A stretch of DNA of 42,586 nt from the IMG/VR virus record IMGVR_UViG_2541047870_000002. The stretch is one strand, 5' to 3'. A program made the translations under genes and the position numbers. Every line of letters begins with the position of its first letter. Within the stretch, counting starts at the first letter, position 1. The stretch comes from a virus. Lineage: Duplodnaviria > Heunggongvirae > Uroviricota > Caudoviricetes. Below the pieces are notes generated by a model. The model was not told the origin of the DNA, searched no databases, and saw nothing but the letters and a program-made list of their open reading frames with translations. Below, in pieces: positions 36,294-40,910 of the stretch.

Positions 36294-36553
36294 AGTCTGT
36301 TGAGGAGAAGCGGTTTAATTGTAACTCAATTCTTTTTGTGTAATAAAAGTAGGACAAAACTGTGACACATAAAGCCTCGCAATGGTTTGCAAGGCTTTGA
36401 ACGCTTCTGTATTGATGATGTGACGCGGTTTCGTTTATTTCCATTCTATATATTGATGTCGATTTTTATGAATATAGAGCATACGGATAAACTGCAGTGT
36501 GATTAGAGTCAAAGTAATAGTTGTTGACTCTAATCATTGCAAAGTGACTTTAC

Positions 36554-37621
36554 TTAATGAAATTTATCTCGGATGAATTGTTGCGATGGTTTTTCAATAA
36601 ATATATATGACATATAGCTAATTGCCATTAATGTAAGCATGAATAAAATGAATACCTTGGGGCTGTAAAAAAGATCGCGTCCATAGCCAATCTTGTCAGC
36701 TAAATAAACAACAATGATTTGCAAAGGAAAATGTAAAAGATAAGATGAATAACTGATATCGCCCAACCATTCAATTTTTTTCCCAAAATCGTTTCGTATT
36801 GCGCTAATTGATACAAGGAAAAAGATTATGGAGGTAAATCCGAATAAGATAATTGAGAATATATCTGCTACTTGCAGGGTAAAGATAACTCCCCATGAGA
36901 TCAATAGAAAAACACAAGCAAAAATAAAAAATAACTTTGCGCTAATATTATTTATGGCCGCAATCGTAATTTTATAAGTCAGACCACCAATAAAGAAAGA
37001 GAATGCGCCGATCATTATGGGATTGTTAATTTTGAAAAAGTAGTACGACAATGCAACTATTAAAATTGATATGAATGTTGTTTTTGATGTGAACTTGCAT
37101 AATATAAAAAATATCATGTACATAAGTACTTCAATCGACACGGACCATGTCGGGGCGTTGAAGGACCAACCTCGCTCAAATCCCCATGATTGAATCATCA
37201 ATAAATTCAGAATGGCATGGTAAATGTCATTCATAGGATAAACAAAAAAATAATTATGACTTTTAAAGAAAATAATTTGTAATATTGCCACGGCAGCAAA
37301 TGTAAATATATAAAGTGGATATAATCTACTGACACGGTTAACTATAAAAGTTTTTGCTGAGGTTTTATTGCTGTGTATATTGTCAGCGTATAGATAAAAA
37401 AATATGAATCCAGAAATCATAAAAAACAATTCGACAGCATATAAACCGTAATGATAAAAGACGGAAAAAAAATCATAAAAAGGTTGGCGGTTTATGATTA
37501 TGTCAGATGCAGCATTCTTTTTCATAAAAAAATGTTGCCAATGCCATAACACAACGGAAAGTGCGGCAAATCCTCTCAGAACATCCAGGGTATATATTCT
37601 CTTCCCAAAAACATTCGTCAC
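36554..37621 (-). CDS. acyltransferase family 3 integral membrane protein (O-antigen/LPS acetyltransferase-like), lysogenic conversion candidate
   Basis: 355 aa, about 10 TM helices, N-terminal motif …LDVLRGFAALSVVLWHW… typical of OafA/Oac-type acyltransferases; very AT-rich; reverse orientation. Confidence 0.8.
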   Translation of the reverse strand: MTNVFGKRIYTLDVLRGFAALSVVLWHWQHFFMKKNAASDIIINRQPFYDFFSVFYHYGLYAVELFFMISGFIFFYLYADNIHSNKTSAKTFIVNRVSRLYPLYIFTFAAVAILQIIFFKSHNYFFVYPMNDIYHAILNLLMIQSWGFERGWSFNAPTWSVSIEVLMYMIFFILCKFTSKTTFISILIVALSYYFFKINNPIMIGAFSFFIGGLTYKITIAAINNISAKLFFIFACVFLLISWGVIFTLQVADIFSIILFGFTSIIFFLVSISAIRNDFGKKIEWLGDISYSSYLLHFPLQIIVVYLADKIGYGRDLFYSPKVFILFMLTLMAISYMSYIFIEKPSQQFIRDKFH

Positions 37622-37984
37622 AACGAACCTCTTTTAATAAAGTCAAGTGATAATGAAAGATAAATATTGTAAACGAAAAAGCACTGGACTGGAACATATA
37701 TCTCTGCCTATAATTTAACCAGGATAATTTTACTAACGCAGTCATAATTCGTTCATGTATACCAGATGAAAGTACATGTTCTATGAAATAGGGTTTTGCC
37801 TGGAGTTTGAAGGTTTTTAACGATTATACCTGTTTAATCGACTCCCCATGTTTTTTGACATTATCCACCGCACACGATACTGGATGCCAGGCAAACTGAT
37901 TTGCTGGCATAAAGTCACTGAGAATTTTTTACCAACAATATCTTGCCACATCTTTGATCCTACCCACGTAATATGGACACAGGC

Positions 37985-38851
37985 CTAAGCGAGGTTCTGG
38001 TTTTCAAATTGTTCCGGACTGAGGCCGCCACACCAACTGTGCCGCCGCCACCGATTGTAATCACATTCGATATAATTAAACACCGTTGCCCGCATTATTT
38101 CCCGGCTGATAAAGTGTTCTCCATGGATACATTCCACTTTCAGCGAATGAAAGAAGCTTTCCACGCAGGCATTATCGTAGCAGCAACCTTTTGCGCTCAT
38201 ACTTCCACGCAGATTATGCCGCTTCAGTTGCGCCTGATAATCTGCTGAACAGTACTGGCCTCCACGGTCCGTGTGAACGATAACGTTCCGGGGCCTCTTA
38301 CGCCGCCACAGCGCCATCTGCAGGGCATCGCAGGCCAGTTGCGCCGTCATGCGTGGCGACATTGACCAGCCAATAACGGCACGTGACCACAGGTCAATGA
38401 CCACTGCCAGATACAGCCAGCCTTCATCTGTACGTAAGTACGTGATGTCTCCTGCCCACTTCTGGTTCGGGCCACTGGCGTAAAAATCCTGCTCCAACAG
38501 ATTTTCTGACACAGGCAGGCCGTGTGCGCGGTAGCTGACCGGGCTGAACTTCCGGGAGGCCTTTGCCCTCAGTCCCTGACGGCGCAGGCTTGCCGCCACG
38601 GTTTTTACGTTAAAGGGGTAACCCTGAGCACGCAGTTCATCCGTCAGGCGTGGGGCACCGTAACGCTGTTTTGACCGGGTAAAAGCCGCGAGGACAACGC
38701 TGTCGCAGTGTTGGCGGAACTGCTGACGCGTGCTTATCCTTGTCCGCCGCTGACACCACGTATACCAGCCGCTGCGGGCCACCCGGAGCACGCGGCACAT
38801 TGCTTTGATGCTGAACTCAGCCTGATGTTTTTCAATAAAGACATACTTCAT
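37985..38851 (-). CDS. insF: IS3 transposase OrfB (DDE integrase domain)
   Basis: 288 aa, recognised IS3 transposase sequence. Confidence 0.9.
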
Positions 38852-39147
38852 TTCAGGCGCTTCGCGAAGTATGTCGCGGCCTTTTGGAGGATAGCCAGCT
38901 CTTCATCCCGTTCTGCCAGCTGGCGTTTGAGACGTGCAATCTCGGTAGACATCTCCAGTTCACGTTCAGAAGACGTCTGCTGATTTTGCTGTTTACTGCG
39001 CCAGTTGTAGAGCTGTGATTCATACAGGCTGAGTTCACGGGCTGCGGCAGTAACACCGATGCGTTCAGCAAGCTTCAGGGCTTCACTGCGAAATTCAGGC
39101 GAATGCTGTTTACGGGGTTTTTTACTGGTTGATACTGTTTTTGTCAT
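38848..39147 (-). CDS. insE: IS3 transposase OrfA (HTH)
   Basis: [32 protein letters not shown]… recognised as IS3 OrfA; track ORF 38848..39156. Confidence 0.9.
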
Positions 39148-39432
39148 GTGAGTCACCTCTGACTGAGAGTTTACTCACTTAGCCGCGTGTCCACTATTGC
39201 TGGGTAAGATCACTTTTCCCGCACAGTTTCGGCAATAGAATCAGCGGGCAGCGGTCATCAATATTCATCAGACATTGATCTGCCGCACTATCTGACCGGT
39301 GTCCTGCTGAGAATACTAATTTCTTTTTTTGCAAGTGCTGTCCAATCATGATTGGGGGGGGGCGGCGGAGTTGAAACCGCAGGTACGTTGTATGCAATAA
39401 CGTGCTGCGGTTTAATCTTATCAATTGAATAC

Positions 39433-40206
39433 TCAAAAATTAGGTGAGTAACGGACCGGGGACATAGCTCCTTTTTTTCTTAATTCATCTGGTATTTTTT
39501 TCCCAAGATAAAGATTTGCTATTTCAGGTGGGGCTTCTCGACCTTCAAAACCATAGCGAGAACTTTGTGTTGCCTCAAAGTCAGGATCCTCGTCCCAGTA
39601 TTTCATCGTAGGGAAATTTTCACGTGTTGATTTGAGCCATTTATCAGCAATAAAAACCCCTCGAACGATGCCCCTTACAGTGGCAAGAATGACTTCTGCT
39701 TGGCTGGCGCGAGAGACATTAATGCGCCAGCTAAATCGAACCGCATCATAAAGCTCTGAATCCTTTGCACTTCTGTTAACGGAAATCATTAATGCTTTAT
39801 GATGAAATGTTATGGTTTCGGGTTGATATGTTGCTATCAACTCTTTGACATGCGCGGCGCCAAATTCATTGCTGCCAGCACCATTCATGATATTCGTTAA
39901 CCCAGGGTAGGCATCAATAAGTGCTGCTTCAACTTCGTACGCCGTCTTTTCATCAGTCATTCCGTGTCGATGGATGACGTGGATAACTTCAAGTCCTGCT
40001 AACCTTATTTCTCTAATTTGCTTTAGCTTGTTGCTCAGTAACTCGTCATCGTCAGCTGCTGCCACTTCACCGCGCATATGGGCAAATACGCGGTTGCCTT
40101 TGCCTTTCCCTACATAGAAGGTGCTTCCGTCCCTCGGATCAATCAATCGGTAAACATACCAGCCAAGGTGCTCAATTACTCCAGAGGGAAACTCAGTAAT
40201 ATCCAT
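39433..40206 (-). CDS. GIY-YIG nuclease-domain protein with uncharacterised C-terminal domain (cargo gene at attR-proximal slot)
   Basis: N-terminal GWYVYRL…[14 protein letters not shown]…E motif series typical of GIY-YIG; 257 aa. Confidence 0.6.
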
Positions 40207-40910
40207 TTTCTATTGTCTGTGAATTATTTGTCTGGCATATGTTAATGAATGTTTTGAGGATTCACAACCAATAGTATGGGCTAACGTCATCCTACATTTG
40301 AGGTGGCCAAAAATAAGCAATTTTTAGTAGGCACGAAGTTGAGCACCATCGCCCATTCATATCTGTGTGTAAGTTGTATCAGACAGAGTCTGAACTAATG
40401 AAATAGAATTAATCCCATATTGTTACTAATCGAACAGTTATTCTGAGATGTTACATTGTAACGAGGGTATATCGTTGGGTATGCCTGAGGTATTGCACAC
40501 CATTAGACCTACGGCGAACTTCCCCTGTCTCCAGACGTTGCTGATACTAAAGATAACGGTGCTGCATTTTATCAGAATTGCCATAGAGAATTGCATTATA
40601 GTAAAAATGAGAAAGAACTAATTGAGATGCATTGCGTTAATATAAACCGATTACAGAAATAAAATTGTTTATTAAAGTCACATTTAAGATGTAATACCCT
40701 ACTTGGTAAAAATTTTCTCTGATCATAATTTCTGCAAATATTAATTGCTATTTTTATGCTAAAAGTGGTTATCAAAACTCAAAAACACATGTTGATAATC
40801 AATGAGTTAGGGAGATGCTAAGAGCTAATGAGTTATATGCAAGTTAGTAAAATTATGTTGCTATATCAAATAGTTGAGAATTAATCATCTAACTAATGTT
40901 ACGCCATATG

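Follow-up and report, generated by a model that had tools for sequence, protein, structure and literature searches.

The stretch of DNA analysed here (the window, 42,586 nucleotides of IMG/VR virus record IMGVR_UViG_2541047870_000002, a member of the Caudoviricetes) contains a prophage whose right-hand end carries a short run of accessory genes. Gene calls made from an open reading frame (ORF) listing and from Pfam scans place three units, all on the minus strand, between the end of the tail-fibre assembly gene tfa at 36293 and the icd' fragment that begins at 40896: an acyltransferase-3 (AT3) gene, a copy of the insertion sequence IS3, and a gene for a GIY-YIG nuclease that is assigned below to the CMoRE family (Table 1). 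Beyond 41060 come iraM and then ycgX. The GC content is 0.56 in the structural genes, against 0.32 in the acyltransferase gene and 0.44 in the GIY-YIG gene. An Rfam scan of the whole window returns zero family matches. The initial annotation of this DNA had listed the acyltransferase, the IS3, the GIY-YIG gene and the lack of an invertase, and each is found where it had been placed. Positions 35239-40895 very probably form the accessory ("moron") end of a prophage of the e14 family that is integrated in icd, built from independently mobile pieces. Every component belongs to a known kind.

Table 1. Features of the att-proximal end of the prophage (window coordinates; strand left empty where none applies)
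Feature	Position	Strand	Basis or remark
Tail-fibre gene, 308 aa	34951-35877	+	N-terminus e14 StfP-like, C-terminal tip glycine-rich
Single Pin-type crossover site AAACCTTGGTTTGGGAGA	35235-35252	+	Equals left arm of the K-12 P-segment inverted repeat
tfa, tail-fibre assembly (chaperone) gene, 138 aa	35877-36293	+	Pfam Caudo_TAP, E = 6.5e-21
AT3-only membrane acyltransferase, 355 aa, GTG start, 32% GC	36554-37621	-	PF01757, PHROG 3333
Putative promoter-proximal region of the acyltransferase	37622-37740	-	86% identity to Citrobacter freundii locus stops at 37740
CTT target duplication, left copy	37952-37954		Empty-site comparison
Intact IS3, 1258 bp	37955-39212	-	NCBIfam transpos_IS3, 3.3e-101
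IS3 orfA and orfB	39156-37985	-	orfB 37985-38851; orfA 38848-39147
CTT target duplication, right copy	39213-39215		Empty-site comparison
G9 homopolymer	39354-39362		Spacer between CMoRE and IS3; length varies among relatives
Hairpin-forming inverted repeat AAACCGCAG...CTGCGGTTT	39365-39404		Junction of acyltransferase and CMoRE cassettes
CMoRE/PD-T4-3, GIY-YIG type IV restriction endonuclease, 257 aa	39433-40206	-	PADLOC, PDB match
CMoRE upstream region, 69 bp, co-mobile with the gene	40207-40275	-	Homology to pinE-CMoRE prophages stops at 40275
AT-rich segment, 243 bp	40276-40518		Between CMoRE cassette and mcrA relic
mcrA 3' relic, last 47 codons and stop, no start codon	40519-40662	+	tblastn and base-level alignment
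e14-type attR arm, 26% GC	40663-40895		Within K-12-like block 40520-42586, 95%
icd 3' fragment (icdC equivalent) at attR	40896-41060	+	ORF translation; annotated so in relatives

Membership of the e14 family is indicated by an integrase 93% identical to IntE (1455-2579), by the duplicated icd' and by the flanking iraM and ycgX; the prophage as a whole shares synteny with a complete phage genome of 41 kb. In e14 of Escherichia coli K-12 the order is stfP, a 1797-bp invertible P segment, pinE, mcrA and icdC, and the initial annotation was correct on e14. Its description of this end as a variable, att-proximal cargo region is also borne out, since the contents of the slot differ between relatives: K-12 has pinE-mcrA, strain 2A and O157:H7 have pinE-CMoRE, CT01 has acyltransferase-CMoRE plus a type II restriction-modification system, and IAI1 has the acyltransferase plus an unrelated gene.

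The GIY-YIG gene can be assigned, from its predicted protein, to the characterised type IV restriction endonuclease CMoRE/PD-T4-3, an identity that had at first been missed although the gene itself was correctly located. Pfam covers only the N-terminus of the protein (as a LEM-3-like GIY-YIG domain). The PADLOC model PD-T4-3 (PDLC04031) matches residues 1-256 of 257 at 2.2e-140, and a PDB sequence search finds the crystal structure 9U75 at 1e-172, with 254/257 residues identical and the alignment gap-free to residue 257, as well as 9U7U at 1e-150. Residues Y17, Y19 and Y31 of the GIYxY-YIG signature are kept, as are R80, V92, L96 and Y127, and the acidic lid reads D52-D53-D54-E55, as in the APEC O1 protein. 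The O157:H7 enzyme is a modification-dependent endonuclease that binds and cleaves DNA containing 5-hydroxymethylcytosine (5hmC) or glucosyl-5hmC (ghmC), leaves DNA with cytosine or 5-methylcytosine (5mC) uncut, and cuts at CN11/N9G; it is a tetramer that works as a single gene, senses the modification through its C-terminal domain, and lowers the plating of T2, T4 and T6 about 10^5-fold without abortive infection (PMC12923530). In a clinical strain PD-T4-3 works from its native locus (bioRxiv 2024.12.20.629700), and a distant homologue is likewise modification-dependent (PMC12366544). The enzyme encoded in the window would confer direct, non-abortive immunity to T2, T4 and T6, as shown for the 98.8%-identical protein. 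Its promoter probably lies within the 69 co-mobile base pairs upstream, where a weak TTGTGA-N17-TAACAT pair can be read.

Cassette borders, set by blastn against relatives, divide the region into two blocks. Block A (35239-39405 minus IS3) aligns with IAI1 at 94% over 35239-37955 and 39213-39405; in IAI1 the same tip, tfa, acyltransferase and spacer are joined to the baseplate and fibre N-terminus of another phage, with an unrelated gene next in line and no CMoRE. Block B (39372-40275) consists of CMoRE with 61 bp past its stop and 69 bp before its start; in strain 2A and O157:H7 it follows pinE directly. The pinE-CMoRE prophages match the window over 1-35252 and 39372-40275. With Block A ending at 39405 and Block B starting at 39372 by blastn, the two overlap at the hairpin, an inverted repeat common to otherwise unrelated arrangements, where it stands after pinE (strain 2A, O157:H7) or after the acyltransferase spacer (IAI1).

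The left border of Block A falls at the centre of a Pin-type crossover site inside the fibre gene, and the IAI1 junction keeps only the right half of that site. Residues 1-101 of the fibre are 97% identical to K-12 StfP, the tip matches Pfam Gly_rich_2 at 1.3e-14, and DNA homology to the K-12 fibre gene stops at 35252, exactly at the crossover site; the C-terminus of tfa is 73% identical to K-12 TfaE. At up to 3 mismatches this site is the sole match in the window (0 expected by chance), an inverted partner is absent from the window, and K-12 PinE searched by tblastn against the window finds no invertase (best E = 4.9). The locus thus has no serine invertase gene beside the fibre genes and only one crossover site, which sets it apart from the Din family (Pin/Gin/Cin), and the initial statement that there is no DNA invertase stands. 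The block borders together with the lone crossover site argue that Block A took the place of the P segment and pin, between the crossover site and the hairpin. The site appears to be a leftover of the lost invertible P segment and to form the left border of a fibre-tip/tfa/acyltransferase cassette. This cassette, made up of the glycine-rich tip, tfa, the convergent AT3 acyltransferase and about 530 bp of upstream spacer, would have entered by exchange at the Pin crossover site within the fibre gene, displacing the invertible P segment and pin. As these have been removed, the fibre is now fixed.

In relatives, RefSeq splits the same fibre into a "stfP" pseudogene, marked as truncated, and a "glycine-rich domain protein" of its own, and the tfa that it annotates is N-terminally incomplete in 4 of the 5 relatives examined; in the window an uninterrupted 308-aa ORF is followed by the 138-aa tfa. 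The split annotation is probably an artefact of the mosaic junction.

Distribution separates the pieces further. Across 5426 complete E. coli genomes (the sample behind all presence counts and the check for the IS3 insertion, unless stated otherwise), CMoRE is found in 838, the acyltransferase in 49 (48 at a coverage of at least 80%), and the fibre tip with tfa in 293 (262 at a coverage of at least 80%; P1-like plasmids are included). Tip, tfa and acyltransferase are contiguous in 47 genomes, acyltransferase and CMoRE in 41. With 47 contiguous cases out of 49, the acyltransferase in E. coli is essentially always attached to this fibre tip; the reverse is untrue. The acyltransferase is genetically part of the fibre-tip cassette and not of CMoRE, and CMoRE is independent of both the fibre tip and the acyltransferase.

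To the right of Block B the trace of an earlier occupant can be read. Homology to K-12 begins at about 40519, within mcrA, and runs on through the attR arm, icd', iraM and ycgX at 95% over 2071 bp (to 42586). McrA residues 231-277 align with 40519-40659 at 72% identity (tblastn, E = 2e-15), the relic translating as ...NCHRELHYSKNEKELIEMHCVNINRLQK followed by the stop. A remnant of mcrA in the same slot as CMoRE points to replacement of an HNH, 5mC-directed type IV enzyme by a GIY-YIG, 5hmC-directed one. The 243-bp segment between relic and Block B occurs in 9 of the 5426 genomes, always at this locus and in icd-integrated CMoRE prophages.

The acyltransferase is, as initially described, a reverse-oriented and AT-rich gene, and its PF01757 match (86.1 bits against a cut-off of 31, E 3e-24) spans residues 10-334 of 355. 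It matches PHROG 3333, "O-acetyltransferase", at 1e-40, and Pfam detects no second domain, so there is no fused SGNH. The protein carries R16-X10-H27, FFMISGF at 66-72 and R96-V-S-R99, and these motifs (the second as FFMISG, 66-71) are invariant in a 17-sequence alignment; R/K-X10-H (in the first transmembrane helix), FFXISG and RXXR are motifs of the AT3 family (PMC7448272). An AlphaFold2 model (pLDDT 88.7, pTM 0.88) is all-helical and contains some 10 long helices. Among solved folds the top match, a weak one (probability 0.98, TM 0.42, E 0.14), is to HGSNAT (8VLI), a transmembrane acetyl-CoA acetyltransferase and the relative to be expected (PMC12423673). Searches of the PDB by sequence and by profile find no relative, and searches of PADLOC and NCBIfam find no match. 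The ORF is intact, and the sequence is 97-99.6% conserved across the 49 genomes. Upstream of the gene an AAGAGG ribosome-binding site and a TACAAT -10-like hexamer can be read from the sequence.

The company kept by homologues falls into a few patterns. Those in Citrobacter freundii (86%), Klebsiella variicola (48%) and Serratia marcescens (49%) lie immediately after prophage tail-fibre genes, in convergent orientation. Homologues in Pseudomonas savastanoi/syringae (43%) sit within O-polysaccharide clusters of the rhamnose type, together with rmlA/B/D, rgpF, glycosyltransferase family 4 (GT4) and GtrA-like genes, and the Xanthomonas albilineans homologue (43%) is within a rhamnose-type O-antigen cluster in the same way. 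The Kluyvera homologue (59%) is an orphan chromosomal gene. Among 115 immediate neighbours of about 60 homologues (35-48% identity), the polysaccharide-related families that recur are RmlC (7), ABC-2/Wzm-like proteins (5), epimerases (5) and GT4 (3). Since homologues stand beside tail fibres or in O-antigen clusters, the acyltransferase is a reasonable candidate for a modifier of the receptor or O-antigen. It would move an acetyl or other acyl group from cytoplasmic acyl-CoA across the inner membrane, to be esterified onto a periplasm-exposed envelope glycan, most likely a sugar of the O-polysaccharide, and the consequence would be a changed receptor or serotype of the lysogen. Phage AT3 enzymes are known to acetylate O-antigen and block superinfection, as do Sf6 Oac, OafB of BTP1 and the phiV10 enzyme (PMC9558356). 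We judge it fairly likely that the acceptor is some envelope glycan relevant to phage adsorption; that it is the O-antigen itself has about an even chance.

The IS3 is about 1.26 kb long and has imperfect terminal inverted repeats (IRL, the left repeat, ending at 39212; IRR, the right repeat, ending at 37955 and facing the acyltransferase), orfA and orfB encoding a DDE (rve) transposase, and a 3-bp target duplication. That a full IS3 with a CTT duplication is present, as first proposed, is confirmed by the IS3-free relative NZ_CP116241.1 (99.9% identical), which has a single CTT at the empty site (...CCACATCTTTTCCCGC...). None of the 5426 complete genomes has IS3 at this site, and the exact 40-mer spanning the IS3 junction has no match in 185,579 species-representative genomes; the insertion is probably recent. 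Between the element and the acyltransferase GTG start there are 333 nt (330 nt if counted from the duplicated CTT), which corrects the 323 bp first reported. The element interrupts no ORF, and both genes are oriented like its transposase.

The proposal that IS3 may alter expression of either neighbour proves poorly founded. Standing 220 nt past the stop codon of CMoRE, the element leaves the promoter of that gene untouched, and CMoRE itself would most likely be unaffected. On the other side, upstream conservation of the acyltransferase with Citrobacter amounts to 119 bp, ending at 37740, and IS3 is 215 bp farther out; a reporter study detected no outward promoter activity from wild-type IS3 ends (PMC12095673). 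Given that the conserved stretch ends before IS3 and that the ends lack such activity, neutrality is the default reading. A hybrid promoter at either IS3 end was considered and rejected, as the junction sequences show no convincing -35/-10 pair. The acyltransferase would at most lose read-through or regulatory input from upstream, with its proximal promoter intact. Read-through or an upstream element may still make a difference: as no terminator is predicted in the stretch from CMoRE to the acyltransferase, transcripts running on from CMoRE would now be broken off, or those of the transposase would take their place.

The spacer that IS3 entered has features of its own. The homopolymer in it is G8, G9 or G10 among near-identical relatives and G6 in IAI1, with a T7/T9 polymorphism close by; read on the minus strand, it separates TTCAAC from AATCAT and so fixes their distance. 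The tract may belong to a phase-variable promoter, or the length differences may be a sequencing or assembly artefact. An ORF of 80/86 aa across the spacer was set aside as spurious, since its reading frame changes between relatives with the length of the poly-G tract. The hairpin was considered as an intrinsic terminator and rejected, its folding energy of -20 kcal/mol corresponding to z = -1.5 (not significant) and a U-tract being absent. At the same icd locus of STEC388 (NZ_CP041425.1), CMoRE carries a frameshift, an IS26/Tn3 block adjoins it on the 3' side, the expected place of the acyltransferase cassette, and iraM is cut by IS1. With IS26/Tn3 there and IS3 in the window, the spacer downstream of CMoRE has been struck independently by different insertion sequences.

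Other accounts of the region can be weighed against one of independently mobile pieces. The acyltransferase and CMoRE might form one two-gene defence system, receptor masking plus restriction in a single operon, now split by IS3; they share a strand with no recognisable terminator in between, and they are contiguous in 41 of the 48 acyltransferase-bearing genomes. It is nevertheless very improbable that they do, since the cloned CMoRE gene protects alone and all 274 CMoRE systems surveyed are single-component (PMC12923530), while the acyltransferase is found without CMoRE in IAI1 and in Citrobacter; the idea was rejected on the mismatch in distribution (49 against 838 genomes) and on the separate homology blocks that meet at the hairpin. 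Hardly more can be said for the view that the region is what remains of a decaying cryptic prophage and now serves no function. The mcrA relic and the IS insertion would suit it, as would damage in relatives (STEC388 has the frameshift in CMoRE with IS26 next to it, CT01 a truncated acyltransferase, and NIST0056 an IS66 within its tail genes), but the fibre, tfa, acyltransferase, CMoRE and IS3 ORFs of the window are full length with key residues intact, in a prophage that is syntenic with a complete phage genome, and we give this account very little credence. A functionally important IS3 is less improbable and still unlikely. The element would either cut the acyltransferase off from an upstream promoter, maybe a phase-variable one that spans the poly-C tract at 39354-39362, or drive the gene by transposase read-through. 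It was inserted in a spacer of about 530 bp that always travels with the acyltransferase in E. coli, the tract varying from G6 to G10 lies between weak -35/-10-like hexamers facing that gene, the transposase reads toward it with no terminator predicted on the way, and IS3-family ends hold latent promoter potential (PMC12095673). Against this, Citrobacter keeps only the 119 bp upstream, with IS3 beyond them, the hexamers fit consensus at only 3/6 and 4/6 positions, homopolymer length differences may be assembly errors, and the same study found the wild-type ends without detectable outward activity.

The substrate of the acyltransferase can be weighed as well. The enzyme might act on lipopolysaccharide (LPS) core, enterobacterial common antigen, periplasmic glucans, capsule or peptidoglycan, or be silent, with no serotype conversion as the result. 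AT3 proteins modify many acceptors (PMC9558356), this one has no close characterised homologue, the Kluyvera homologue is a lone chromosomal gene, and the GC content is 32%. We consider such an outcome somewhat unlikely, in view of the 43%-identical homologues inside O-antigen gene clusters, of RmlC and Wzm-like proteins as the commonest polysaccharide neighbours, and of an ORF that is intact in its catalytic motifs and highly conserved in 49 genomes. Several observations nevertheless tell against the account preferred here. LPS core, not O-antigen, is the classical target of invertible fibres like those of Mu, P1 and e14, and the acceptor could for that reason be something other than O-antigen. 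AT-rich cargo is often silenced by H-NS. The best match to the acyltransferase in 50,697 phage records is 38% identical and comes from an unannotated faecal contig; the best annotated phage matches, among those listed, are 25-28% identical, no characterised phage O-acetylase at E <= 1e-5 stands above 28% identity among the matches listed, and Sf6 Oac is absent both from the 30 matches listed and from the organism names tallied. About 215 genomes carry the tip and tfa without the acyltransferase, so the linkage is not obligatory. Scans of 36200-40900 find 13 promoter-like sites where 12.7 are expected and 2 terminator-like sites where 4.8 are expected; as these are no better than chance, the statements made here about transcription are inference only.

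Receptor or O-antigen modification by a mobile fibre-tip cassette is still the reading we prefer, and a bolder form of it can be stated. Tip, chaperone and acyltransferase would make up a "key plus lock-changer" cassette, acylating the very glycan that its own tip recognises (possibly a rhamnose-containing O-polysaccharide) and passing from one phage to another, unrelated one through recombination at the crossover sites of invertases. It would stand in for an invertible segment but have a single orientation, and its expression would be set by a phase-variable poly-C promoter, now uncoupled from the gene by IS3. In this full form the proposal is speculative and quite unlikely to hold.

Elsewhere in the prophage, a KAP-family P-loop NTPase of 443 aa (13362-14693, minus strand) matches Pfam PF07693 at 8.9e-71 and the PADLOC candidate system PDC-S20 at 1e-176. 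It is placed between the Q antiterminator and the lysis genes, in a slot where the IS3-free relative has a KwaB-like gene; this is a second defence-type moron slot of the same prophage. Two blocks, 6017-8085 and 15845-17637, do not align with the prophage of the closest relative, and the latter encodes a DUF6979 protein and a KilA-N/ORF11CD3 protein. Outside the window, NZ_CP081794.1 and NZ_CP081704.1 are 43.7-kb circular "plasmid" records that are copies of a dusA-integrated relative also present in the chromosomes of the same strains, and they are probably assembled circles of excised phage. As cargo they carry CMoRE, an acyltransferase that is truncated, and a type II endonuclease together with a cytosine methyltransferase.

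If these assignments hold, a lysogen should be immune to T-even phages (5hmC/ghmC) by means of a known single-gene nuclease, and it may also display an acylated surface glycan; both are relevant to the choice of therapeutic phages and to serotyping. The locus is a clean natural example of defence-gene turnover in one prophage slot, from McrA to CMoRE, with the 3' end of the predecessor visible, and it shows how a fibre-tip cassette has taken over from an invertible segment at precisely the point where the recombinase crosses over. It leaves current understanding unchanged.

The pieces can be set beside their closest known counterparts. The IS3 differs from K-12 IS3A (insE1/insF1) by 2 nt over 1255 shared bp, with the same inverted repeats, an identical OrfA, and an OrfB that matches at 287/288 residues (Q285K). 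Like Sf6 Oac/OacA, SfII OacD, the phiV10 O-acetyltransferase and OafB of BTP1, the acyltransferase is an AT3 protein without SGNH and with the same three motifs (PMC9558356, PMC7448272), and it lies, as theirs do, at the att-proximal end of a temperate phage next to receptor-binding genes. The similarity to those enzymes is at family level only, and the prophage of the window differs from those phages in having a contractile Mu-like tail with fibres and not a tailspike. CMoRE shares with the E. coli O157:H7 protein (9U75/9U8D; APEC O1: 9U7U/9U7Z) the GIYxY-YIG signature, the acidic autoinhibitory loop, V92 and L96 of the tetramer interface and Y127 of the 5hmC site, and both are single-gene cassettes in prophages. 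Three substitutions separate the two: E55 for D in the acidic loop, and one Q/K and one N/H change in the C-terminal domain. The window gene follows the acyltransferase cassette, whereas that of O157:H7 follows pinE; upstream DNA beyond -69 is unrelated between the loci, and the expression level may therefore differ.

Compared with e14 of K-12, the prophage has the same integration in icd with an icd' duplicate, a closely related IntE (93%) and StfP N-terminus (97%), one Pin crossover site, the last 47 codons of mcrA, and the attR arm. It differs in having no 1797-bp invertible segment, no pinE and no functional mcrA, and with the invertible segment and pinE missing there is no PinQ/PinE-driven StfE2 adsorption block (PMC12529663). 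Whereas e14 is a 15-kb remnant, the prophage in the window is complete, with head, tail and lysis genes. McrA (EcoKMcrA) and CMoRE occupy the same att-proximal slot and belong to the same class, modification-dependent restriction; McrA is an HNH enzyme directed at 5mC, CMoRE a GIY-YIG enzyme directed at 5hmC/ghmC (PMC12923530), and in the window mcrA persists only as a non-coding relic beside the gene that has taken its place.

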